Origin: Nitrospirota bacterium
Lineage (GTDB): Bacteria; Nitrospirota; Thermodesulfovibrionia; Thermodesulfovibrionales; UBA9159
Direction: 5' to 3'
Assembly: GCA_963699545.1 (NCBI GenBank)
Contig: CAVOUE010000005.1
Coordinates: 416,001-480,000, forward strand
DNA: 64,000 nucleotides
In this document: one piece after another, positions 34,364-59,238 of the stretch
Layout: each line of letters begins with the position of its first letter
How positions within the stretch are numbered: the first letter of the stretch is position 1
Translations under genes and position numbers: made by a program
Notes under the pieces: generated by a model
The model's input: only the letters and a program-made list of their open reading frames with translations
Told to the model about the DNA's origin: nothing
The model's database searches: none

Positions 34364-36265
34364 ATGTCGGAATACGGACAGATCCATAATCGAAGGGACC
34401 GGCCCCAAAAGTCCGGAGGCACATCGGGCACTGATGGGAGAATGCCCCGAGGGGTGCGCCTGCCCTCATTTCTTTCGAAATGGATGCTGCTGTTCTGCGC
34501 ATTCTCTCTCCTCGCAGGGGCGGTTGCCGGGTTCGTCTACTGGAGCATTTCAGACCTCCCTGCCCTTAAATCCCTGGAGGAGTATTCCCCGGCCGAATCC
34601 TCCCTGGTATACTCATCTGACGGCGAGATCCTCGCAGAACTCTACCTCGAAAGAAGGACATTCATCCCCTATTACAAAATCCCCGACCACGTGAAAAAAG
34701 CCTTCATCGCCATAGAGGACGTACGTTTTTACAGTCACCCCGGCGTAGACTTTATCGGCATTCTCAGGGCCCTCTATCAGGACCTCAAGACCAGAAGCAT
34801 TGCCCAGGGCGGGAGCACCATCACGCAGCAGCTTGCAAAAATGGTCTTCCTCAAGCCTGAGAGAAGCGTGAAGCGGAAGTTGAAGGAGGCGGCCATCTCT
34901 ATCCAGATAGAGAAACGCTACACGAAGGACGAGATACTGGGGCTTTACCTGAACCAGGCGTATTTCGGGACGCGCGCCTACGGCATCGAGGCGGCGGCGC
35001 AGACTTACTTTGGCAAGTCAGTGGGTCAGCTCACCGTGGGTGATGCCGCAGTCCTGGCCTCTCTGCCCAAGGCTCCCTCCCAATACTCACCCTTTAGGAA
35101 TCCCGAGAAGGCGAAGGAGAGGAAAACCACGGTACTGAGACTGATGCTGCAGGACAAATTCATCACAAGGGCACAGTACGAAGAGGCAGAAAGCGACCCC
35201 ATGCCGGTAACCCCGCACTACCGTAAATATGAGGCGCCCTATTTTGTCGAGATAGTGAGACAGGAACTGGAGGCGAGATTCAATCATGAACTCTATACCG
35301 CCGGATACAAGATTTACTCCTCCATAGACTCCTCGATGCAGAAGGCGGCGGAGGAGGCCGTGACGAACGGAATCATCGCTGTCGAGAAAAGGGCAAAGAA
35401 GGGGGTGCAGGCCGCGCTCATCGCCGTAGAGATAAAGACCGGCCAGATCAGGTCAATGGTGGGAGGCTCTGACTTCTGGAAAAACCAGTTCAACCGGTCG
35501 ACGCAGGCGCTGCGGCAGCCCGGTTCCGCCTTCAAGCCCTTTGTGTATCTCACGGCCATCGAACACGGGATGACTTCCACTGATACGATACTGGACGCCC
35601 CTATCTCCTTCAAAGGGGCCAGGCCGGGTCACCCATGGAGCCCGAAGAACTATGACGGGAAGTATCATGGCACAGTCACCCTCAAGACCGCCCTTGCAAA
35701 GTCCCTGAATGCCGCCACCGTACGGCTTGCGGACAGGGTGGGAGTCGACAGTATCATCGAGACTGCCCAGAGGCTCGGCATAAGGAGCACCCTCCAGCCG
35801 TATCTTCCCATCGCCCTGGGCGCCTCGGATGTGACCCTCATGGATATGGTGTGTGCGTACAGTGCCTTTGCCACCGGCACTCAGGTGAAGCCCGTGTTCT
35901 ATGAATGGGTGATGAACAAGGACGGAATGCCGGTGAGCGAGATGAAGGAGGAAAGGACCGATATCATATCCCAGGAGGATACGGAGGAGATGAGAAAATT
36001 GCTCCGGGCCGTTGTGGAGGAAGGGACGGCCATGAGGGCTAAGGAACTCAAGAGAACGCTCTACGGAAAGACCGGTACCACGAACGATTACTCAGACGCA
36101 TGGTTCATAGGCTTCGATGACCGTCTTGTGGTGGGTGTCTGGGTGGGAAGGGACGACCACACGCCCATAGGGGTAAAGGAAACAGGCGCCAGGGCGGCTC
36201 TCCCCATATGGATGGAGTTTATGAAAAAAGTGCCTCAACAAACTCTTTCGAATCAAAATCCCTGA
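34364..36265 (+). CDS. Class A penicillin-binding protein (PBP1A family)
   Basis: TM anchor, EDVRFY and GGSTITQQLAK (transglycosylase), GSAFK, SLN, KTGT (transpeptidase). Confidence 0.93.
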   Translation: MSEYGQIHNRRDRPQKSGGTSGTDGRMPRGVRLPSFLSKWMLLFCAFSLLAGAVAGFVYWSISDLPALKSLEEYSPAESSLVYSSDGEILAELYLERRTFIPYYKIPDHVKKAFIAIEDVRFYSHPGVDFIGILRALYQDLKTRSIAQGGSTITQQLAKMVFLKPERSVKRKLKEAAISIQIEKRYTKDEILGLYLNQAYFGTRAYGIEAAAQTYFGKSVGQLTVGDAAVLASLPKAPSQYSPFRNPEKAKERKTTVLRLMLQDKFITRAQYEEAESDPMPVTPHYRKYEAPYFVEIVRQELEARFNHELYTAGYKIYSSIDSSMQKAAEEAVTNGIIAVEKRAKKGVQAALIAVEIKTGQIRSMVGGSDFWKNQFNRSTQALRQPGSAFKPFVYLTAIEHGMTSTDTILDAPISFKGARPGHPWSPKNYDGKYHGTVTLKTALAKSLNAATVRLADRVGVDSIIETAQRLGIRSTLQPYLPIALGASDVTLMDMVCAYSAFATGTQVKPVFYEWVMNKDGMPVSEMKEERTDIISQEDTEEMRKLLRAVVEEGTAMRAKELKRTLYGKTGTTNDYSDAWFIGFDDRLVVGVWVGRDDHTPIGVKETGARAALPIWMEFMKKVPQQTLSNQNP

Positions 36266-37124
36266 GATCTTCTCCTCCCTCGCCAACACCGATGAGACGT
36301 ATGGGTATCCCGAGTTCCTTCTTTATGGCAAATACGATCCCGCCCTTGGCAGTGCCATCCAGCTTCGTGAGGGCGATACCGGTCACTCCCACAGCGCTGT
36401 CAAATATCTCTGCCTGCCTGAGGGCATTCTGTCCTGTGGTGGCGTCCACCACGAGAAGAGTTTCGTGGGGAGCCCCCGGCATGGCTTTGTCGATCACCCT
36501 CCTCACTTTCTTCAGCTCTTCCATGAGCGGACTTTTTGTATGAAGCCTTCCGGCAGTATCGATGATCACCACATCCACTTTCCTGCTCCTGGCTGCGGAA
36601 AGCGAATCAAAGGCGACCGCAGCAGGATCCGAGCCGCTCTGATGTTTCACGATCTGGGCCCCGGTTCTCCTGGACCATATCTCGAGCTGCTCTGCGGCTG
36701 CGGCACGGAACGTGTCACCGGCTGCCAGAAGAACCGATTTCCCTTCAGAGATAAAACGGCCTGCAAGTTTTCCGATGGTGGTGGTCTTCCCGACCCCGTT
36801 CACACCCACAGTGAGGATAACAAAGGGCCTTTCTCCTGATACAACGAGAGGCAGGGACGGCCCGAGCAGCGTCGTCATCTCCTGTTTGAGGAACTCCCTG
36901 ACGTCTTCAGTATTGCGGATCTCGCCCTGCTTCGCCTTGTCCCTGAGGAGATCCACGATCTCCCCTGTGGCCTTGACGCCGACATCCGACGCGATAAGGG
37001 TCTCCTCAAGTTCATCGAGGGTCTCGTCATCGATCGCTCTTCCGGTGAAAAGCGCCTCCACCTTCCCGATGAAGCCCTTCCTCGTTTTTTCAAGTCCTTC
37101 CTTTAACCTGTCAAAAAAACCCAT
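36219..37124 (-). CDS. ftsY: Signal recognition particle receptor FtsY
   Basis: GVNGVGKTTT, DTFRAAA, DTAGR, TKLDG. Confidence 0.97.
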   Translation of the reverse strand: MGFFDRLKEGLEKTRKGFIGKVEALFTGRAIDDETLDELEETLIASDVGVKATGEIVDLLRDKAKQGEIRNTEDVREFLKQEMTTLLGPSLPLVVSGERPFVILTVGVNGVGKTTTIGKLAGRFISEGKSVLLAAGDTFRAAAAEQLEIWSRRTGAQIVKHQSGSDPAAVAFDSLSAARSRKVDVVIIDTAGRLHTKSPLMEELKKVRRVIDKAMPGAPHETLLVVDATTGQNALRQAEIFDSAVGVTGIALTKLDGTAKGGIVFAIKKELGIPIRLIGVGEGGEDLRDFDSKEFVEALFS

Positions 37125-37741
37125 TAGCTCTCCTTCTCAAGTAAGATGATGCCATCATAATAACCCTTTGCTTTTTCCTTTTTCCAGTTTAAAGGATTTT
37201 CGATATCCTCTTCCCATCTCACAGAATTGCTGATAACGTACTGTCTGATGCGATTCAGCTGATCTTCGCCCCGGATGACATGTTCATAGTAGTTGCGCTG
37301 CCATAATCGACCCGAGAGTTCGCTGTTGTTCTGATTTATCCATTTTAAGTACTCCGTTGAAACCATTGATTTAAATGCACCCACGACATTCCCTAAGGTA
37401 GGGGCAGGGCTCGCCCCTGCCCTCTTCACCTTTTCATCATCAGGGTTAACAGGGATTTGACCCTCCGCATGCCGGGCAACCGCAAGGGTTGCCCCTACAT
37501 GAATCCATAAAATGCAGTGGATGTGGTTCGGCATTATCACAAACTCATCCAGTTCAATGCTGGAGAACCTTTTGGGCAGATTCCGCCACTGTTCCTCAAT
37601 TATCGACGCGACAATGGCATCTTCAAAAATGCATTCTTTCTTATATGCGCATATCGTGGCAAAATATGCCCCTTTACTGGAATAGTCGTAACCCTTCAAT
37701 CTGATCGAACGGCGATGATGGATTTCAGGATTATATTTCAT
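37124..37741 (-). mobile_element. REP-associated tyrosine (HUH/Y1) transposase, RAYT-like
   Basis: HRRSIRLKGYDY, VIMPNHIH (HUH), WQRNYYEHVIR..YVISN. Confidence 0.88.
37398..37498. repeat. Inverted REP doublet inside the RAYT coding sequence
   Basis: GTAGGGGCAGGG-CTCG-CCCCTGCCC at 37398-37422 and GGGCAACC-GCAA-GGGTTGCCCCTAC at 37474-37498. Confidence 0.75.
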
Positions 37742-37755
37742 CTTCCCCCACTGTC

Positions 37756-37927
37756 TTACAAGAAACGGGGCAGAAAGACATTTCCTGGCAAATTGTCGGG
37801 GGCTTTTCTTGCGGGTTTCTTTATCCCAAGCCTATACATACAAGCGGGATTTTCTCCTGCGGCTGTAAGACTCGTAGTCTTCTTCAGGTTCAGCTATCCT
37901 GCGGGTATAAACAAGGTTATAGCTCAC
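37756..37927 (-). pseudogene. Remnants of two RelE/ParE-type toxin N-termini and an antitoxin C-terminus
   Basis: GTG 37927 (GTGA overlap with antitoxin stop) MSYNLVYTRR fused to IAEPEEDYESYSRRRKSRLYV*; ATG 37839 MYRLGIKKPARKAPDNLP..* (27 aa). Confidence 0.55.
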
Positions 37928-38121
37928 TCTCCAAAAAGCTCTTTATGTGATTTTGTCCTGCCTGTTTTATATTCGGCTCTTGCCTCCTTGATACTTTGAA
38001 GATAATCAGGGGAAGTCATGGCAAGCAAATCTTCAATAAAAGCCTCTCTTTCATATTTCTTCATTTTCTTAACAGCTCCGATAATATCGTCTGATGAAAT
38101 AGGCACTTTTACTTCTATCAT
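37924..38121 (-). CDS. Putative type II antitoxin (RelB-like)
   Basis: 65 aa; SPDYLQSIKEARAEYKTGRTKSHKELF C-terminus typical of RelE-associated antitoxins; GGAGG RBS. Confidence 0.65.
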   Translation of the reverse strand: MIEVKVPISSDDIIGAVKKMKKYEREAFIEDLLAMTSPDYLQSIKEARAEYKTGRTKSHKELFGE

Positions 38122-38155
38122 GAATAGCACCTCCCTCTAAGTGTTATTTTAACAT

Positions 38156-38236
38156 TCATTCCTTCCCCGCCACAATCTCAATCTCCTCATCGGTCAAACC
38201 ATACAATATGCAAACTATCTCATCTATCAGTTTGAC
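38156..38236 (-). repeat. RM-enzyme C-terminal relic, copy A
   Basis: KLIDEIVCILYGLTDEEIEIVAGKE*; core CCACAATCTCAATCTC at 38170-38185. Confidence 0.8.
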
Positions 38237-38262
38237 GTTTCTGTTTGGTCCTATATTATCGT

Positions 38263-38454
38263 TTACTGCGGGTCTGGAATTCCAAGCTGTCTGCAAATCT
38301 TCATCGCCAAGAGATCGGCGATATCTGTGTGTCTTGGAATTGTGGTTGATTTATCCGTACTGGCAAGATTTATATAGCGGGAGTGCTTTGCACCTTCTCT
38401 CAAAAGAACACATCCATGGCGTTCCAGGTGCCTGATCAGCTCCTTTCTCTTCAT
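38263..38454 (-). CDS. hicA: HicA-family toxin
   Basis: MKRKELIRHLERHG..REGAKHS..TTIPRH..KICRQLGI. Confidence 0.88.
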   Translation of the reverse strand: MKRKELIRHLERHGCVLLREGAKHSRYINLASTDKSTTIPRHTDIADLLAMKICRQLGIPDPQ

Positions 38455-38651
38455 ACCTCAATTTCTTCCAGCACGACCTCACGTTTTGGCAGGGAAGAAA
38501 TATCAACCGGTTTCTGCATTTCACGCACGGCATCGATCAGGTTTTCCTTCGCCTCTTCAATCGTTTTTCCCTGAGTGAGCGCCCCCGGAACATCATCGGC
38601 CCACGCCACCCACCACTTGCCGTCTTTGACAAAAGTGGCTTTTATCTTCAT
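38451..38651 (-). CDS. hicB: HicB-family antitoxin (short)
   Basis: WWVAW..VPGALTQGKTIEEAKENLIDA; ATGA overlap with hicA. Confidence 0.88.
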   Translation of the reverse strand: MKIKATFVKDGKWWVAWADDVPGALTQGKTIEEAKENLIDAVREMQKPVDISSLPKREVVLEEIEV

Positions 38652-38785
38652 AGCTTACCTCCTTTGAATCCAACTCCTTTTCTCAACGGCCTTTCCCGCC
38701 ATTTCACCGTCACAGAGGCTGTGCCGCTGTGGGCAAGAGACCGGACCTCCGAAAAGCCTTCCTGAGTTATTATATAACACTTTTA

Positions 38786-38955
38786 TCACTTTACCCCTCC
38801 CTCCACAATCTCAATCTCTTCCTGTGTGAGGTCATAGAGCCTATATACTATCTGGTCTATCAGATTATCTGTTGCTTTTATCTTCTCCTTCAACGGCTCA
38901 AGAACGGCACTGCTCTTTATGAAATGTTTCTCCAATAATTCCTGAGTCTTTCGAC
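38786..38955 (-). repeat. RM-enzyme C-terminal relic, copy B
   Basis: RKTQELLEKHFIKSSAVLEPLKEKIKATDNLIDQIVYRLYDLTQEEIEIVEGGVK* with no start codon and an upstream in-frame stop; core at 38803-38818. Confidence 0.8.
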
Positions 38956-39018
38956 CCGGCCTTCAATTCCTCTTCAACCCACCTTGTCGTTCCCTGAAAA
39001 CTCATGTTGTTTCCTCTC

Positions 39019-39846
39019 CTATGATGCTTCCGAAAGTCTTTCCATCCATATTCCGTTCAAATACGACAAATCTCCCGCATCAGCGTCATGGAGCGCCTTC
39101 AGGTACCGCTTCTTCCCTTGAGGGTCAACTGACGCAGTCTCAGCGGTCGGAAGCCTTAGCCTGAAAAGTATTGCAGACAATAAAATCCTGCCGACACGGC
39201 CATTGAAATCCTTAAACGGATGAATCCACTGAAACCGCCAGTCGGCATAGGCAAGAGTCTCTGCAAATTTTTCAATGTCCCTCTTTTGCAGGGCCCCTGT
39301 GAGCCGAACGGCAAGATCGTCGCAATACAAGCGCATGTGAACAGGGACTTCGAAATATGGCGGAGGGATATGTGAGCCTACCTGGACATTCACATCTCTG
39401 AACCTTCCCGCCCAGTCAGGGAACAATGAGCCTGCTATGTCGCTGTGAAGTTTGCATATCCACTCCGGGGTAATGTGAATATCTTCAGGAATCCCATTAG
39501 TGATCTGCTCCACGCTTATTGCGACGGATACGGCGAGGATTTCTGCTACTTCAGAATATGTCTTTATACCCTGCGCTGTTTCAAAATAGCGGGTTGAATC
39601 TATCGGACGTGTGCTGCCTTCTCCCTTTCGAGGAGCTCCTTCAGGCGGCTCATACTCACTGGCTCCTTCTCGAACTCCATGGACTTCACCACCCAGTCCA
39701 GTATCTTCTCCTGATATGCCTTCCTGAGCACGTTTATATCTGCGTGACTTTCCTGCCACTTTTCGAGCCTTTGCTGGGCCTTCTTTATCTCTGCCTTTGT
39801 CATCTTGTTCTTCCTTGCTTTTATTTTGACATTTATTAGTTTTCAT
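39019..39846 (-). CDS. Fic/Doc family protein (start uncertain)
   Basis: WAGRFRDVNVQVG and HPFKDFNGRVGR Fic-like motif. Confidence 0.85.
   Translation of the reverse strand: MKTNKCQNKSKEEQDDKGRDKEGPAKARKVAGKSRRYKRAQEGISGEDTGLGGEVHGVREGASEYEPPEGAPRKGEGSTRPIDSTRYFETAQGIKTYSEVAEILAVSVAISVEQITNGIPEDIHITPEWICKLHSDIAGSLFPDWAGRFRDVNVQVGSHIPPPYFEVPVHMRLYCDDLAVRLTGALQKRDIEKFAETLAYADWRFQWIHPFKDFNGRVGRILLSAILFRLRLPTAETASVDPQGKKRYLKALHDADAGDLSYLNGIWMERLSEAS
39600..39803 (-). CDS. Small protein overlapping the Fic ORF, probable antitoxin
   Basis: 67 aa helical; SMEFEKE resembles the S/G-x-x-x-E-G/N Fic-inhibitory motif; AAGGA upstream. Confidence 0.6.
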   Translation of the reverse strand: MTKAEIKKAQQRLEKWQESHADINVLRKAYQEKILDWVVKSMEFEKEPVSMSRLKELLEREKAAHVR

Positions 39847-39870
39847 TGCAATAGTTTCGATTTTCTTTTC

Positions 39871-39890
39871 CCCTCCACAATCTCAATCTC
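39871..39890 (-). repeat. Repeat copy C, overlapping the stop codon of the S-subunit gene
   Basis: CCCTCCACAATCTCAATCTC identical (20 nt) to 38799-38818; reads EIEIVEG in an alternative frame. Confidence 0.8.
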
Positions 39891-41271
39891 CCAATATCAT
39901 CCCCTCAACCCGATGTTTGGCTTCCTCAATGATCCTTGTCGCCTCTGCCTTCAGCCTTTCGGCTTCAGAGATTCGTCTCTTAACTTCATCGGAGATTTTG
40001 TTCTGGATTTCGAGAGGGGGAATGGGGACTAGAAAATTCTCTATTGTCGATATTGTTATATTCCCTTGTATTGCCCCTATCTTTTCTCTTTCTGTAAAAA
40101 GCTTTGAAATCTTGTTGTTCAGCCATATTGAAACATATTCTTTATTAACTTCATCATTAACACAAAATTTAATCATAAACGAGCCAAAGGCAAACCCATC
40201 TGCCTCTTTTGGAACGACTGCAACAATTCCAACGGAACCGCTTCTGGAAACCAATAAATCCCCTTCATAAACAAACCCACTTCCAATTTCTTTTCTCTTT
40301 GATTCTTCAAGATGGGCTATTTCTGTTAGGTCTATCTTGTTAGGTTCTATATTTAATATTCTAAGCAGAGGTATTCCTTCATCAACATAAACATTCTTAA
40401 TAGAAACACCATAATGGATTTTTGTTACAAATTCTTTCAGCTTCGCTATCCTGTATTTCCCTTTCTCTAATGCCTTCTCAACTTCTTCAAACTTCGGCTG
40501 ATAATACGCAACATCCGCTCTGCTGTTCTGCACTTCTGCAGAGGTGACAACAAAACACATCTCGTCCTCAACCTCCGGAAGTTTTATGCCCAGGTCATCA
40601 AGCACATAACCATCAATCGAATCCAATAGCCTCTGTGCCTTAACTTTTTTTTGTTTCTTCTGGTTGTACGCCGATTGCATGATATCAACGATTTGGGTTT
40701 GGATTTCTATAGATGGAATGGGAATTAATATCTTCTTTACTTCTTCCGTGTTTAATTCGGGGCGAGTAGATTTGTTTCCCCATCTATAAATTTGCTGACT
40801 ACCAACATCAGAAAGCAAATAAGTCTTAAGGTAATATGGATTAACCTCTGGCTTGCAGGTGATTGTTACTAAGTGAGAAGTTATATTCCCCTCTATTAGT
40901 CGGTCAGGAAAGACCGCCGAGTATCCCAAAATTGCTCCTGCCTTAGTTAAAAGAACATCATTTGGCAAGACTCTACTTCTTTTTAATTCGGCGTGTTTTT
41001 CCGGAGATATTTTCACTAGATTATTTTCTGAGATTTCTCCAGTTTTAACATTTGAAACCCTTACAACCGGAATGCCTTCTGTAGTATAGTCTTCGACTTT
41101 TAATTGTGTTCCAAATGGCCCATCGACAATTCTACTGCATATATCACCAATTCTCTTTATTTCATACTTAGATTTTTGTAGCTTATGAATTAACTGCAGA
41201 TATTTAGGGTCATAAAACAGAGGGTCTATTCGTCCCTCGATCTCGTTACTCAAAACCGTAAAACACTGCAT
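39883..41271 (-). CDS. hsdS: Restriction-modification specificity (S) subunit with two TRDs
   Basis: Two repeats RIDPLFY/RADVAYY..GIPVVRV/GIPLLRI..IPIPSIEIQ/VPIPPLEIQ with coiled-coil spacers; AT-rich. Confidence 0.88.
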   Translation of the reverse strand: MQCFTVLSNEIEGRIDPLFYDPKYLQLIHKLQKSKYEIKRIGDICSRIVDGPFGTQLKVEDYTTEGIPVVRVSNVKTGEISENNLVKISPEKHAELKRSRVLPNDVLLTKAGAILGYSAVFPDRLIEGNITSHLVTITCKPEVNPYYLKTYLLSDVGSQQIYRWGNKSTRPELNTEEVKKILIPIPSIEIQTQIVDIMQSAYNQKKQKKVKAQRLLDSIDGYVLDDLGIKLPEVEDEMCFVVTSAEVQNSRADVAYYQPKFEEVEKALEKGKYRIAKLKEFVTKIHYGVSIKNVYVDEGIPLLRILNIEPNKIDLTEIAHLEESKRKEIGSGFVYEGDLLVSRSGSVGIVAVVPKEADGFAFGSFMIKFCVNDEVNKEYVSIWLNNKISKLFTEREKIGAIQGNITISTIENFLVPIPPLEIQNKISDEVKRRISEAERLKAEATRIIEEAKHRVEGMILGD

Positions 41272-41272
41272 C

Positions 41273-43072
41273 TTATTTACCCTTCAAGAACTTTTTATAT
41301 TCCGCATAAATCGTATTGAAATCATTTTCTGGGACTTCCCTGCCAGTAGCGTCGTACCCGATGTGGTCTGCTATTGCCATGAAGATTGGATACTTTGCTA
41401 ATCTTTCGTTTTCGCCTTTCCTTCTCAGAAACACAAGCGAAGATTTAACGCCCGCGCCGTAATGGGTGAAGGCGAATTGAGGTAAGGAGACGACTGCTAA
41501 TATCTGGCACTTTTCCATAATAAAGTTCCGCACATATTGCAAAGAAGAATTGGTCAAAATCCCGTCAGGCAATACGATGCCGATTCTGCCGGTCTTCGGT
41601 TTCACAAAATCAATACACCGCTCAATGAACATTACCTCTGTTTTCTGATTCTTCTTACCTTTACCGAGGTCGTATTTCTCCAAATAGTTTTTCTCTGTTG
41701 ATTTGACAGACGCGCCGAATGGGGGATTGGTAAGGATGATGTCGAAATAATCCTTCTTGAAGCCTTTATGTATATCCGTAATCTCTTTAACATCTCTTAG
41801 CGAATCCGTGCTGATCACGTTTGTATGTCCGTCATCGTGTATGATCATGTTCATCTTGCAGACCCTTGCGATCTGGTCGTTAATCTCAATGCCATAAAGA
41901 TTATTCATGGCGAAATTATGCCAGTGCTCCCATGCCTCTTTTTCATCATAATTATCTTCAGCAAACTTTTTCACCAAATCCATTGCGTTCAGTAGAAAGC
42001 CGCCGCTTCCACAGGCGGGGTCTAAGATCAAATCAGTCCTTTCAGGATTGAGCATCTTCACGGCAAATTCAACAATCGGGCGTGGCGTAAAGAATTGCCC
42101 CATCTTGCCTTTAAAAAAGTCCTGCATAAACCGCTCGAATGCAACCCCTTTGGTGTCCAGGTCAATCTTGTTTATAGCCAGCTCTTGCAGGTGCTCAACC
42201 ACATTGTAGACAATCTTTGCGTCTAATCGGATATCTTCCCTGAAAACTTCCGAGTCTTCTTTCTTTGCCTTCTGATATATGGAATCAATCCTATCGTAAA
42301 CCTCGTCTGCCGATTCATGAGTGCCGATCTGGAATTTGTACGTATCGCCCTTCTTCGTGCCTTTTTCGTCTTTCAGTTTACAGAACAGAAGCTTTGATAC
42401 TTCGTCAAAAGCTGTTGTAGGCGCGAGCCTGCCGCCCTGCCAGACAGTATCGTGGGATTTCTCCAGTGCCCTGATGAGTTCTTCTCTGGAGACGATCTTT
42501 AAATCCCTTGCCGGATCGCCCTTGACGAATCTGTATTTCGGCGTTTTTCCATATCTTACAGAAACATCAGAGATTACATTTCGTTCTCTTTCGCTAGGCT
42601 TGAATCCTTCAACATCAAATACTGTCTTTGTAGTGCCAGCGACAACAGCTGCGAACTTTGACCTTAAACTGTTTGCATTTCCAAAGGCTTGTTCAATAGC
42701 CTGCTTGAATTCAGCATCTGAAATGCCATCTTTTTTACACTCAACAACTAAATAAGGTTTCTTTAGCTCCTCGTCTTCATAAATAACAATATCAGCTCTG
42801 TCTTCGGGCTTTCTTCTCGGAACAATGACCTCTAAATCTATCTTTTTACTCGGGTACTCATAGTCCAGAACCAGCTCTGCAAAATAGGAGGCCCTTACTT
42901 TTTCCTCTGGTTTTTTGTAACCCGACGTATAGTCTCGGCTGCAGTGATAGGTGATTTTGGAGTTGTCGTCAGATAAGGAAATGAAACCTTTCTCGATGGC
43001 TCTCTGGATATTTCTCTCAAAGATTGATTCGTGATTGGTTGTTTTTTGTCGTGTCACATCTCTTTCAGGCAT
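41273..43072 (-). CDS. Fused PD-(D/E)XK endonuclease (HsdR N-terminal type) + N6-adenine methyltransferase (type IIB/BcgI-like R-M subunit)
   Basis: RADIVI..VVECKK nuclease motif; GQFFTPR, DPACGSGGFL (motif I), TNPPFG (motif IV). Confidence 0.88.
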   Translation of the reverse strand: MPERDVTRQKTTNHESIFERNIQRAIEKGFISLSDDNSKITYHCSRDYTSGYKKPEEKVRASYFAELVLDYEYPSKKIDLEVIVPRRKPEDRADIVIYEDEELKKPYLVVECKKDGISDAEFKQAIEQAFGNANSLRSKFAAVVAGTTKTVFDVEGFKPSERERNVISDVSVRYGKTPKYRFVKGDPARDLKIVSREELIRALEKSHDTVWQGGRLAPTTAFDEVSKLLFCKLKDEKGTKKGDTYKFQIGTHESADEVYDRIDSIYQKAKKEDSEVFREDIRLDAKIVYNVVEHLQELAINKIDLDTKGVAFERFMQDFFKGKMGQFFTPRPIVEFAVKMLNPERTDLILDPACGSGGFLLNAMDLVKKFAEDNYDEKEAWEHWHNFAMNNLYGIEINDQIARVCKMNMIIHDDGHTNVISTDSLRDVKEITDIHKGFKKDYFDIILTNPPFGASVKSTEKNYLEKYDLGKGKKNQKTEVMFIERCIDFVKPKTGRIGIVLPDGILTNSSLQYVRNFIMEKCQILAVVSLPQFAFTHYGAGVKSSLVFLRRKGENERLAKYPIFMAIADHIGYDATGREVPENDFNTIYAEYKKFLKGK

Positions 43073-43129
43073 ACCGTAAGGTATCAGGATTTCCACTATT
43101 TTTCAAGTAACGCTTGATATAATACCCCC

Positions 43130-44614
43130 ATGAATTCTTATGCCCGTCTTATTCCCCGGCTAAACGGTGGAGAGATTGAGGAGAAGTTCTCCTATTATCT
43201 CGACCTCGTAAAGAAAGGGGTCGCCGGTTTCATCGTGTTCGGCGGAGAGCTTGAGACAGTCCGGGCGAGACTGGCAGAGCTTCAGGCAGCTTCTCATTAT
43301 CCGCTCATCATCGCCTCTGACCTGGAGCAGGGGCTGGGTCAGCAGATAGAAGGCGGCACGGTTTTCCCTCCTGCGATGGCGATCGCGTCTGCAATCACGC
43401 CCCCGTCGCCCCCCCTTGCCAAGGGGGGGAATGAGAGGGGGGTGAGTTCCAAGTTAAACCTACTGAGAAAAACATTCAAGGCTATTGCGCTTGAGGCCCG
43501 GTATGCCGGAATCAATACGATATTCGCCCCTGTTCTGGATATCAATACGAACCCGGATAATCCTATCATCGCCACGAGGGCATTCGGCGAAGACCCCGCA
43601 ACCGTCTCCTTTTTTGGGTGCGAGATGATCAAAGTGCTGCAGCGCAACGGGATCATCGCGTGCGGGAAACACTTTCCCGGACACGGCGATACAGAGGTCG
43701 ACTCACATATCAGCCTCCCTGTCGTCAGGAAGGGTCTCCATTCCCTGGAGCAGAACGAACTCGTCCCCTTTAAGAAAGCGGTCGGCGAGGGAGTGGACAT
43801 GATAATGCTCGGCCATCTGAGTGTCCCCGCCCTTGACCCTTCAGAAAGGCCCGCGTCCCTTTCAGATAAGGCGGTCGCGTACCTGAGGGACAGAATGGAG
43901 TTCGGTGGAGCAATTATTACCGATGCGATGAACATGGGAGGGATTGGTCGGTATACGGAGAAAGAGGCATCCCTTATGGCCCTCAACGCGGGTGTTGACA
44001 TCATCCTCCATCCCTCAGACCCCGATGCCGTGGCAGCGTATCTGTTGGAAAAGAATTGCTTCACGAGTAAGACCACATCCTTGTCATTCCCCGGCTTGAC
44101 CGGGGAATCCAGAAACGCTCTGGATGCCCGATTAAGAACTTCGGGCATGACATATGAAGAAATTGATTTCGCCTCACACCAGAGGCTTTCTGATGAGCTT
44201 GCGGGCATGGCTGTCACTATAGAAGGGAAAAGTGATCTGAGGCTAACGAAGCCTTTCATGATCATCCTGAAGGAGGACAAGGTCGAGAGGGGCGGGCACT
44301 TTGCGAATGCATTGAAGAAGAGATACGCGGGTTTTCGTTATTGCTCCGTCATGCCCGGAGATGAGATACCATGGTCTGCACTTCCGAGGGGCCATGACCT
44401 TTTGGTCGGCGTGTTCTCACAGGTGAAGGCGTGGAAGGGTCAGACTGGCGCATGGGTTCGAAGAGCAGTTGAAAGCCTCGATGGCAGGGCAAGGCTTTTC
44501 ATATCCTTCGGGAACCCCTATGTCCTCAGGAACGTGAGGGATGCCGCCAGGATATACGCCTATTGGGATTCCCGGTCAGCCCAGGAGTCAGTGGCCGAAA
44601 GACTGCTGATGTAG
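43130..44614 (+). CDS. Glycoside hydrolase family 3, NagZ-like beta-N-acetylhexosaminidase
   Basis: SDLEQG, APVLDIN, KHFPGHGDTEVDSH, ITDAMNM. Confidence 0.88.
   Translation: MNSYARLIPRLNGGEIEEKFSYYLDLVKKGVAGFIVFGGELETVRARLAELQAASHYPLIIASDLEQGLGQQIEGGTVFPPAMAIASAITPPSPPLAKGGNERGVSSKLNLLRKTFKAIALEARYAGINTIFAPVLDINTNPDNPIIATRAFGEDPATVSFFGCEMIKVLQRNGIIACGKHFPGHGDTEVDSHISLPVVRKGLHSLEQNELVPFKKAVGEGVDMIMLGHLSVPALDPSERPASLSDKAVAYLRDRMEFGGAIITDAMNMGGIGRYTEKEASLMALNAGVDIILHPSDPDAVAAYLLEKNCFTSKTTSLSFPGLTGESRNALDARLRTSGMTYEEIDFASHQRLSDELAGMAVTIEGKSDLRLTKPFMIILKEDKVERGGHFANALKKRYAGFRYCSVMPGDEIPWSALPRGHDLLVGVFSQVKAWKGQTGAWVRRAVESLDGRARLFISFGNPYVLRNVRDAARIYAYWDSRSAQESVAERLLM
43395..43445. repeat. Palindromic element inserted in frame in the GH3 gene (1)
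   Basis: TCAC..CCCCCCCTT-GCC-AAGGGGGGG..GTGA, encoding TPPSPPLAKGGNERGV. Confidence 0.7.
44082..44152. repeat. RPE/REP-like three-hairpin element inserted in frame in the GH3 gene (2)
   Basis: TGTCAT TCCCCGG-CTTGA-CCGGGGA ATCCAG-7nt-CTGGAT GCCCGA-9nt-TCGGGC ATGACA. Confidence 0.8.
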
Positions 44615-57531: not shown

Positions 57532-59238
57532 GTGGAAGAGAAACCTGGTCTCGCAGATTTAAGTGTCAAGACAGAGCTGAGTCAGAATCCAAAAAAATCC
57601 CGCAAACAAACCTGTGATGGAGCTGATTTGGATCGCCGTTCTTTTCTTTGGCGGCTTGGTGTCGGGGCCACAACTGTGGTCGGTCTCAGTTCCGTAAAAC
57701 TTCTGAATATGGAATCCGTGGCAGAGGCAGAGGATCTCGGCCCACTGAACGATTCGAGACGCAGAAACGTTGCGGAAATAATTCGCTTTGATGCAGCCAA
57801 ACTGGCTAAGAATCGTCCTCCTGTCACACATCCTACCAATGGCGAGGAAGAGCTTTATCGTAATAAGATCGCAAACTATTCCAAGGGCTTACCCCACAAC
57901 AAATTGGGCGAAGTGAATTTGAAGGCATACAATGCCTTGCTCAGGGCACTGTCAACAGGAAGACCGGAAGACTTTGAAGCGATCCCCCTGGGCGGCAGCC
58001 GCAAACTGACGAATCCTCAAGCCGGGTTGGCATTTGATTTGGAAGGCCCTGATTCGCATCACCTGTCGACTCGACCCTCGCCCAAAATCGCCGGCCCGGA
58101 GGCAGCGTCCGAGTTGGCCGAGGTATACTGGATGGCGCTTGTGCGGGACGTGCACTTTATGGATTACGACGCTGATCCGACGATCGACGCAGCAGCATCC
58201 GAGCTTTCGGCGTTTAGCGATTTCCGGGGGCCGAAAATCAACGGAAATGTTATACCCGACACGATCTTCAGGGGCAATACCGAGGGAGACCTTTTCGGGC
58301 CTTATATTTCCCAATTCCTCTGGCTCGATATCCCCATGGGTGCGCTCAGTATTCCACAGATGATGCAGACTGTCATGCCTGCCATAGACTACCTGACGGA
58401 CTACAATGAGTGGCTGAACATTCAGAATGGTGCTGCGGCCATGCCCTATATGCATGACCCAGTACCCCGTTATATTCGCAACCTGCGTGATATGGCTGAG
58501 TGGGTACATATGGATGCGCTCTACCAGGCTTATCACCAGGCATGCCTGATTTTGCTGGGAATGGGTGCCCCAGTGAATCACGGTAATCCTTACGTACGCT
58601 CACGCACGCAAGTCGGCTTTGGCACATTCGGTGGACCACACGTTTTAAGTCTCGTTACCGAAGTCGCTACACGTGCGCTCAAGGCAGCATGGTTCCAGAA
58701 GTGGTTTGTTCACAGAAGGTTAAGACCTGAGGCCTTTGGAGGGCTGGTTCATCATACAAGATATGGCACCGCCAAGTACCCCGTTAACCGTGAGATTTTG
58801 GATTCCATGACCTTGGATAGAATCTTCTCCACGCATGGCACTTATCTTCTTCCTGTGGCGTTTCCGGAAGGATCGCCCGCCCACCCATCATATTGCGCCG
58901 GGCATGCCACGGTAGCAGGTGCCTGCGTGACGATTTTGAAGGCGTGGTTTGACGAGTCTTTTGTTATTCCCAACCCGGTCGTGCCAGATGCTTCAGGCAC
59001 ATCGCTCTTGCCTTACAACGGTGATGACCTGACAGTCGGTAACGAACTCAACAAACTCGCTGCCAACGTGGCGCTTGGGCGCAATGCTGCAGGTATACAC
59101 TACCGCAGCGACTACACGGAATCCGTCAAGGTGGGTGAGAATGTCGCCATCGGTATCCTCCAGGAACAGAGGGAGACCTATAATGAAGATGTCAGTTTTA
59201 CGTTCACCAGATTCGACGGCACTACAATCACAATCTGA
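57532..59238 (+). CDS. Tat-exported vanadium-dependent haloperoxidase (bromoperoxidase-like)
   Basis: DRRSFL twin-arginine; QKWFVHRRLRPE, HPSYCAGH, GRNAAGIHYRSD vanadate-binding motifs. Confidence 0.9.
   Translation: MEEKPGLADLSVKTELSQNPKKSRKQTCDGADLDRRSFLWRLGVGATTVVGLSSVKLLNMESVAEAEDLGPLNDSRRRNVAEIIRFDAAKLAKNRPPVTHPTNGEEELYRNKIANYSKGLPHNKLGEVNLKAYNALLRALSTGRPEDFEAIPLGGSRKLTNPQAGLAFDLEGPDSHHLSTRPSPKIAGPEAASELAEVYWMALVRDVHFMDYDADPTIDAAASELSAFSDFRGPKINGNVIPDTIFRGNTEGDLFGPYISQFLWLDIPMGALSIPQMMQTVMPAIDYLTDYNEWLNIQNGAAAMPYMHDPVPRYIRNLRDMAEWVHMDALYQAYHQACLILLGMGAPVNHGNPYVRSRTQVGFGTFGGPHVLSLVTEVATRALKAAWFQKWFVHRRLRPEAFGGLVHHTRYGTAKYPVNREILDSMTLDRIFSTHGTYLLPVAFPEGSPAHPSYCAGHATVAGACVTILKAWFDESFVIPNPVVPDASGTSLLPYNGDDLTVGNELNKLAANVALGRNAAGIHYRSDYTESVKVGENVAIGILQEQRETYNEDVSFTFTRFDGTTITI

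Follow-up and report, generated by a model that had tools for sequence, protein, structure and literature searches.

The window analysed here is a 64,000-nt stretch of a Nitrospirota genome (contig CAVOUE010000005.1 of assembly GCA_963699545.1, positions 416,001 to 480,000; genome G000 below). Named homologues of its genes likewise point to Nitrospirota, and probably to Thermodesulfovibrionales. Between ftsY and a gene for a glycoside hydrolase of family 3 (GH3), it carries a row of toxin-antitoxin (TA) modules punctuated by three copies, A, B and C, of a short repeat. Our reading, which we consider probable without being secure, is that such repeats are the tails of type IIG restriction-modification (RM) genes, that they separate interchangeable TA and defence cassettes, and that they likely serve as short-homology crossover points at which arrays grow and are reshuffled without a dedicated integrase. 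In related genomes, the tail commonly sits in a row of cassettes behind an intact type IIG gene.

Type IIG gene tails in the window and in related genomes

The repeats lie on the minus strand. A 16-mer occurs at positions 38170, 38803 and 39875 without a mismatch, and these are its only exact copies in the 3.04-Mb genome; a fourth match, at 59222 with three mismatches, is at the level of chance (mean of 0.89 expected at up to three mismatches). Copies B and C have 20 nt in common, and copies A and C are identical at 23 of 24 nt. The positions of the copies, and the peptides given for them in an earlier annotation of the window (hereafter the initial annotation), were reproduced, and its proposal that the peptides are type IIG C-termini is borne out by homology to genes of the Eco57I/TaqI_C kind. 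Specifically, the match to an intact 1325-aa type IIG frame covers its last 23 residues for copy A and its last 52 for copy B (86.5% amino-acid identity of remnant B to residues 1273–1324), the intact 1,000–1,300-aa genes that the copies match carry Eco57I and TaqI_C domains, and both copies end at the native stop codon of IIG-type genes. The tail itself matches no Pfam or PADLOC family. Remnant A is 89.9% identical over 69 nt to its copy in the relative G009 and 68% identical over 60 nt to copy B. The window holds only fragments of type IIG enzymes, and a full-length gene with this C-terminus, already reported as missing from the window, was not found in the whole genome either, where the open frames with this end are of 52–94 aa only.

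The arrays of RM 3′ ends plus cargo that had been proposed from the window are widespread, co-oriented and reshuffled across related genomes. When up to two mismatches are allowed, a 22-nt core pattern is found in 68 of 301 genomes of the class (reversed control, 0), and a 61-position tail profile has matches in 92 of 251 genomes of the phylum. Arrays of up to eight copies were seen; in the complete genome G126, an intact IIG gene and seven remnants extend over 13 kb, and a congener has no array at the same site. Among the matches listed, G373 has an intact gene and four remnants, G372 has five cores, one of them followed by the hicB-hicA pair of the window, and all copies within a locus have the same orientation (63/63 C-terminal profile matches and 65/65 core matches). 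The 124 distinct core sites comprise 18 at the ends of intact genes, 53 at the ends of remnants, 48 bare cores and 5 chance matches. The five chance matches, which lie within genes, and two bare chance matches (L031 and L183) were left out before neighbours, boundaries and clusters were counted, and at least three remnants interrupted by repetitive extragenic palindromic (REP) sequences remained classed as bare cores.

In a Pfam scan of the cargo (103 of 170 called open reading frames, ORFs), the genes with matches are mostly TA or defence genes, including HicA, ParE, MNT-HEPN, DUF433/DUF5615, PIN, BrnT, Mrr_N, AAA_13, SieB and UvrD, and many further genes behind the tail have no Pfam match. 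Of the 48 bare cores, 25 are preceded by a second conserved non-coding stretch, a spacer element about 40 nt long (for example at L157:4970-5013, minus strand of the locus); it shows no consensus hairpin and has no clear copy in G000. A homologue of the REP-associated tyrosine transposase (RAYT)-like gene that stands beside the array in the window is present in 3 of 49 other array loci. With this count and no consensus hairpin in the spacer element, we rejected RAYT as the general motor of the arrays.

Tails also occur as free-standing short proteins: 1,848 database proteins of 17–116 aa match the tail profile, some of them partial at contig ends, and the names of short stand-alone tail ORFs from Brocadiales and Deltaproteobacteria point beyond the phylum. 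Carriage of arrays on mobile DNA is not supported, as the exact core was found in no viral contig, 19 viral loci carry the tail as single copies only, and plasmid matches are single-copy save for one record with two places. All five genomes checked contain the competence genes comEC and dprA, but so do 10 of 14 controls, a weak association; the comEC domain of G000 lies in two pieces in different frames (G000:C3:98762-99608), and the gene may be frameshifted in the assembly.

A second array site of the same genome, on the gatA side (L020:11613-12989, G000:C7), holds an IIG gene reduced by internal deletion to 92 aa, with MNT-HEPN and DUF433 genes behind it; at the equivalent site, intact IIG genes and arrays are found in relatives.

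Joints between cassettes

Cassettes change neighbours at the tail. Across 159 spacers, 26 downstream gene families recur, 17 of them with at least two different upstream neighbours, and the hicB family of the window has four. Among 58 pairs of loci that share downstream cargo, the shared stretch includes the core in 45, starting at −17 to −32 from the end of the core in 23, at −37 in 5, and further up, in shared remnants or spacers, in 17. Conversely, 36 of 42 pairs that share upstream DNA end at −4 to +12 of the end of the core. Upstream blocks that end at the 3′ edge of the core and downstream blocks that start at its 5′ edge are what a crossover in the core would leave, and the expectation of the initial annotation that junctions map to the repeat agrees with this clustering of block boundaries at the 21-nt motif. 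In particular, two distant IIG families are followed by one UvrD cassette, whose homology starts at −23 (88.8% over 1938 nt), and one recent pair is 97.7% identical from exactly −19. In G373, the intact IIG gene and its four remnants are 95–100% identical over 60 nt around four different cargos, and one and the same cargo-plus-tail junction recurs in four genomes.

Fragments of IIG genes are unevenly distributed along the gene. With 60-aa profiles taken from the same seven genes and searched in 251 genomes, frames of less than 200 aa account for 43/93 C-terminal, 23/82 N-terminal and 0/65 middle matches, as tallied by us from the search tables. Tandem copies on one contig were found with the C-terminal profile only, on eight contigs, and N-terminal stubs occupy the leader position only, never a place between cassettes. 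The remnants are 48–233 nt long (n = 40), start within 20 nt of the previous stop codon in 13 of 38 cases, and in several cases keep, as a fossil of operon coupling, the stop/start overlap seen behind intact genes.

The core is conserved as DNA, and its non-coding copies are no exception. Across 24 copies of this IIG type, synonymous identity at codons −7 to −2 is 0.67–0.84, compared with 0.27–0.52 expected, while invariant residues at codons −21, −20, −17, −14, −13, −12, −10 and −8 show synonymous identity at expectation. The 8-mers of the core are not over-represented in G000 in the manner of Chi (z of −2.1 to +1.3).

Expression signals are present in some of the tails. An ORF starts within 60 nt on the same strand at 60 of 101 orphan sites, compared with 11 of 101 on the other strand. 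The initial annotation had suggested, from a box 17–18 nt after TTGTGG in copies A and B, that the repeat provides part of a promoter for the next cassette. The TTGTGG spacing fits copy A, whereas the box after copy B reads TAAAAG and is not a canonical −10 element. In a first set of mostly remnant sites, a −10-like box 16–18 nt past the first TTG hexamer of the core is not enriched (6/63; background 0–8). In bare cores, many of which share descent, it is enriched (14/48; 0–9 in other windows; remnants 6/53), and the usual promoter layout in that subset is TTGAGA or TTGCGA, 17 nt and a −10 box, mostly a spacing other than the one suggested. A general promoter role of the tail is therefore rejected on the first set and on the confinement of the enrichment to bare cores, and only some of the tails appear to supply a promoter or a ribosome site.

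The ftsY-GH3 site and the origin of its repeats

On the minus strand, the site begins next to the GH3 gene (43130..44614, plus strand; Pfam PF00933), its leader-side flank, which directly adjoins ftsY in relatives with an empty site. The resident RM pair consists of a gene with nuclease (HSDR_N_2) and N6-methyltransferase domains (41273..43096; Pfam PF13588 and PF02384; PADLOC best match MTase_I) and a specificity (S) gene with two target recognition domains (TRDs) (39883..41271; Pfam PF01420 in two stretches), presumably a two-subunit layout like that of BcgI. The S stop codon lies inside copy C (39870..39890), a bare 21-nt core that corresponds to the last seven codons of a type IIG gene and is non-coding after that stop; the 16-mer overlaps the stop codon, as had been noted. 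There follow a Fic-domain ORF (39019..39846; Pfam PF02661) in which a 67-aa ORF is nested (39600..39803), remnant B (38786..39005; core at 38798-38818), a hicB-like antitoxin gene (38451..38651; Pfam DUF1902) that also stands behind cores in G372, G405 and G441, and hicA (38263..38454; Pfam PF07927). The Pfam matches agree with the earlier HicB-like, HicA and Fic assignments. Remnant A (38156..38233; core at 38165-38185), recognised by sequence comparison, is the decaying last 23 or so codons of a type IIG gene. Behind it, the antitoxin and RelE remnants that had been described are both present, but they are pieces of two modules rather than one: an orphan antitoxin-like gene without family match (37924..38130; function inferred from position), whose stop is overlapped by a nine-codon toxin stub from 37927, is joined by a deletion to the remnant of a RelB-like/RelE module (37803..37901) that is nearly whole in G002. 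A RAYT-like gene (37124..37741; matches below cut-off) and ftsY (36219..37124; Pfam SRP54), both also on the minus strand, close the site.

Palindromes are scattered over these flanks. Two GTAG-tagged palindromes lie in frame within the RAYT-like gene (37398-37498), and palindromic repeat insertions, apparently in frame, lie within the GH3 gene (43413-43444 and 44074-44105); palindromes like the latter also interrupt several IIG genes and remnants in relatives.

The content of the site varies between relatives, as the initial annotation led one to expect: empty or differently filled sites were seen. Among the ftsY regions of 19 relatives, GH3 adjoins ftsY in nine, of which seven lack a sizeable insert and one contains a remnant of a RAYT gene; the ninth, G002, carries a single core with a RelB-like/RelE pair (RelB-like Pfam match) behind it, and this pair is 88.9% identical over 99 nt to the most distal remnant of the window. 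The empty sites hold no copy of the core. G009 has, at its site, an S-gene stub with a core, the antitoxin-Fic module of the window (89.7% identical over 995 nt), an IIG tail of 150 aa and, before ftsY, a different TA pair. A full-length IIG gene in first position, which the initial annotation had suggested looking for, was seen at ftsY-GH3 in none of the relatives examined.

Copy B is not the free cassette repeat that it had been taken for. Four genomes, G012, G001, G224 and G372, have a full IIG gene that is interrupted by the antitoxin-Fic module (in G001 in a partly deleted form). The interruption falls between the TRD and the C-terminal helical domain, where no more than some four IIG residues are missing, and the C-terminal domain of the split gene restarts as its own ORF. 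The window retains this separately started C-terminal ORF as remnant B, minus 236 nt deleted near 38955. Copy B and the antitoxin-Fic module derive from one IIG gene that was split by an inserted module.

The point between TRD and C-terminal domain may be a second insertion hotspot, within IIG genes (L038, L060, L159, L160, L161 and L162). Its cargo is antitoxin-Fic in some genomes, and G438 and G488 have a related antitoxin with a different toxin pair; the split enzymes may still work, with the C-terminal domain restarting as a separate ORF.

The fusion of the S-gene end to the core is also seen in G002, G009 and G284 and is thereby shared by four genomes, including that of the window, with three different cargos. 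The 30-nt bin around core C is identical at 30/30 positions in G284, 30/30 in G009 and 29/30 in G002, while the three coding bins just upstream of the core reach only 21–22/30 in G284, whose S protein is 46% identical. In large scans, the junction was found in 1 metagenome locus and in 3 genome loci with Nitrospirota titles. By these comparisons the fusion is older than the locus, and in the window the Fic module is joined some 10 nt past core C, just before the predicted antitoxin promoter. For both reasons the RM pair probably arrived already carrying the core, and the earlier suggestion that it entered through the same crossover point is not upheld.

The 67-aa protein is a predicted Fic antitoxin. 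It has no family match, has 62 homologues and carries a conserved S-M-x-F-E motif; class I Fic antitoxins are small upstream proteins with an (S/T)xxxE(G/N)-like motif. Complex prediction of the protein with the Fic domain gave a score of 0.93 (best control 0.32), with contact agreement of at least 99% and a partner pLDDT (predicted local distance difference test) of at least 91; the mark used for this score is reached by 116 of 157 solved pairs and 2 of 215 mismatched pairs. The protein is thus predicted to bind the Fic domain, and the score may in part reflect likeness to solved Fic-antitoxin complexes. The antitoxin gene, in the −1 frame of the Fic ORF, is wholly overlapped by an N-terminal extension of that ORF, and the extended frame runs through the antitoxin without a stop codon in all 12 loci with a Fic match, compared with 2 of 10 without one (two loci could not be scored). 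The Fic frame is fused in frame to IIG genes in G012, G224 and G372 and to an S gene in G487; in the window, only the S stop codon stands between the two.

These loci may encode an RM-Fic fusion with a nested antitoxin (window 39019-39890; L038, L159, L160 and L165). A predicted internal promoter, with −35 and −10 elements and a 17-nt spacer (39823..39851, minus strand), recognised by its consensus match and kept in homologous loci, would express only the antitoxin, and one may speculate about a guard-like toxin tied to the RM enzyme.

Mechanism, alternatives and relation to known systems

We infer a pathway of leader displacement, or of deletion that spares the tail, combined with short-homology exchange. 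An RM gene would sit at a chromosomal hotspot, with its 3′ end coupled to cargo genes. The body of this gene would then be lost, either to an incoming segment of RM gene plus cargo or to an internal deletion with a later new arrival, and the tail would be spared; it would be kept because it supplies the ribosome site, the stop/start coupling or the −35 box of the next gene and because loss of a TA module is costly. Once cargo lies between two tails, crossover in the 50–230-nt remnants or in the 21-nt core would insert, swap, duplicate or remove it, and crossover between tails would also homogenise the core. In the window, the two-subunit RM pair, its S gene already core-ended, would have replaced the front of the IIG gene split by antitoxin-Fic.

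Several observations weigh against crossover at the tail. The shared stretch lacks the core region in 13 of the 58 shared-cargo pairs, including that of the window's hicB; the boundary counts rest on pairs that depend on one another; and in many of the 36 upstream pairs nothing but the IIG C-terminal domain is shared, with about 14 sharing cargo by our reading. Bare cores were found by core search, so that shorter joints would be invisible. The same 5′ boundary is expected if remnants are trimmed until a −35 box or a ribosome site is reached, and an expression signal in the tail is enough to account for remnants that shrink no further than the core. N-terminal remnants are common as well, and internal deletion that leaves both ends is common enough to explain many single tails. 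Synonymous identity is also raised at codons −22, −19, −16 and −9, upstream of the core, and a second IIG family shows no such contrast. Tail identities do not reveal a clear gradient of age along arrays; in the window and in G009, it is a distal module that is most decayed. Finally, 21 nt is short for RecA-dependent exchange.

One alternative is that the 21-nt core is the true recombination site of an unlinked host or mobile recombinase, an integron analogue hidden in the end of an RM gene. The conservation of the core as DNA, including non-coding copies, speaks for this, as do the sharp start of the recent pair at −19, the second conserved element before about half of the bare cores, and the grouping of 46 bare cores into 16 upstream clusters, with about 8–10 independent joints to non-RM sequence at most a few bases from the 5′ edge of the core. 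We nevertheless consider it improbable, as the core lacks an evident dyad and the spacer element a consensus hairpin, the core sequence differs between IIG families and with the GC content of the genome, and remnant lengths vary several-fold. Furthermore, no tyrosine recombinase was found in the window (the nearest is about 49 kb away), none in four draft genomes on the contigs that carry arrays, and none in the complete G126 up to 170 kb from its array; G000 (87% complete) has no match to IntI over the TIGR02249 cut-off.

Integrons are defined by the integrase IntI, by attC sites with paired R boxes and a bottom-strand hairpin, and by circular cassettes. Our own scan for attC, which recovered clear sites in three integrase loci plus chance matches, gave 0 in the window (37101-43200) and 1 in 101 spacers, a palindrome judged to be chance. 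IntI exceeds the cut-off in 24 of 111 genomes of the order, on contigs other than those with arrays, and the core and the spacer element are absent from 18 integron-integrase loci of the same order (103 kb). The initial annotation's description of the array as free of attC and integrase holds for the window, the spacers and the array contigs examined, and an ordinary integron, with which the co-oriented, exchangeable cassettes are shared, is rejected. Genuine integrons with attC sites do exist in the order (L227, L228 and L239), separate from the RM-tail arrays.

A second alternative dispenses with crossover at the repeat: RM-plus-cargo units would insert serially at the hotspot, the RM gene would decay, and the tail would be kept as an expression signal of addictive cargo. 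The frequency of internal deletions that leave both ends, the −10 box 17 nt after the TTG hexamer of 14 bare cores, the excess of same-strand ORFs within 60 nt, the start of 13 of 38 remnants within 20 nt of the previous stop codon, and the beginning of the window's retained piece just before the antitoxin promoter are all consistent with it. It is hard to reconcile with N-terminal stubs that occur only at the leader position and never in tandem, with cassettes that keep tails on both sides while their neighbours change, with the near-identical tails around different cargos in G373, and with two intact IIG families swapped before one cassette at the core; the −10 box is, moreover, not enriched in the first set. 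We hold serial insertion to be no likelier than an unlinked recombinase.

Still less probable is local duplication, in which each cassette inserts with a long target duplication that copies the last 50–230 nt of the resident gene: it has precedent at RM loci (Furuta et al. 2010, PMC2853133), the nearest neighbour of a tail is in the same locus in 18 of 69 cases (1.4 expected), and the G373 tails are near-identical over about 85 nt, but best tail matches are on average closer between genomes (0.88) than within them (0.83), copies A and B of the window have diverged, the recurrent junction in four genomes shows that units travel ready-made, and bare cores and the S-gene fusion are left unexplained.

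By analogy, the closest mechanism appears to be the sequential displacement proposed for type VI secretion system (T6SS) arrays of V. cholerae (Kirchberger et al. 2017, PMC5361080). T6SS effector/immunity arrays and Rhs and contact-dependent inhibition (CDI) arrays are integrase-free and co-oriented, a new module displaces the body of the leader and pushes older modules downstream, the 3′ end of the old gene is sometimes left, and finished arrays move by ordinary homologous recombination (PMC5361080). The arrays described here likewise have a leader followed by orphan 3′ ends and downstream genes, in one orientation and without integrase. They differ in that the leader is an RM gene, the cargo consists of diverse TA and defence genes in place of cognate immunity genes, the 3′ tail is kept at many joints, and the 21-nt core is conserved as DNA and occurs alone.

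Insertion with long target duplication likewise leaves direct repeats of more than 30 nt and of variable length, often spanning a stop codon, without mobile-element genes (PMC2853133). In that mode an RM system is inserted and host target DNA is repeated, whereas here the repeat is the RM gene's own end, present in many copies, most of them with a closer relative in another genome than next to them. Such an insertion would leave near-identical flanking repeats and one copy at an empty site; the flanking repeats are near-identical in G373 (95–100%) and 68% identical in the window, and the empty ftsY-GH3 sites hold no copy. Integrons and integrase-less attC clusters share with our arrays the co-oriented, exchangeable cassettes rich in TA and defence genes, with short repeats between them (comparison in PMC5361080), in contrast to which there is here no IntI in the genome, no attC-like joint and no hairpin. 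The pneumococcal tvr locus, which shuffles TRDs by its own tyrosine recombinase (Kwun et al. 2018, PMC6265443), is also an RM locus with direct repeats, a phd-doc-like pair inside and repeat-mediated rearrangement; in our arrays, whole unrelated cargo genes are exchanged, the fragments are C-terminal tails rather than TRDs, and no linked recombinase of the tvr type that shuffles TRD segments was found. A 2025 review of RM systems covers defence hotspots and, in the parts consulted, no such arrays (PMC12707154). We found no description of arrays spaced by RM 3′ ends in the full-text literature, a search with most subscription papers and supplements outside it.

Many defence hotspots gain and reshuffle genes without an integrase. 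Because a recognisable sequence marks the joints of the arrays described here, their turnover can be mapped and tested directly. The tail also offers a search handle: cargo without a Pfam match that stands among known defence and TA genes is a candidate for new anti-phage systems, and the tail would explain a large class of short 'hypothetical' ORFs. More tentatively, Thermodesulfovibrionia may run an integron-like capture of their own, in which the attachment site is the last seven codons of IIG genes, a free-standing, selected recombination and expression site through which any defence or TA gene could be added behind an RM gene. If this were true, one exchange would both renew RM specificity and add a cassette.

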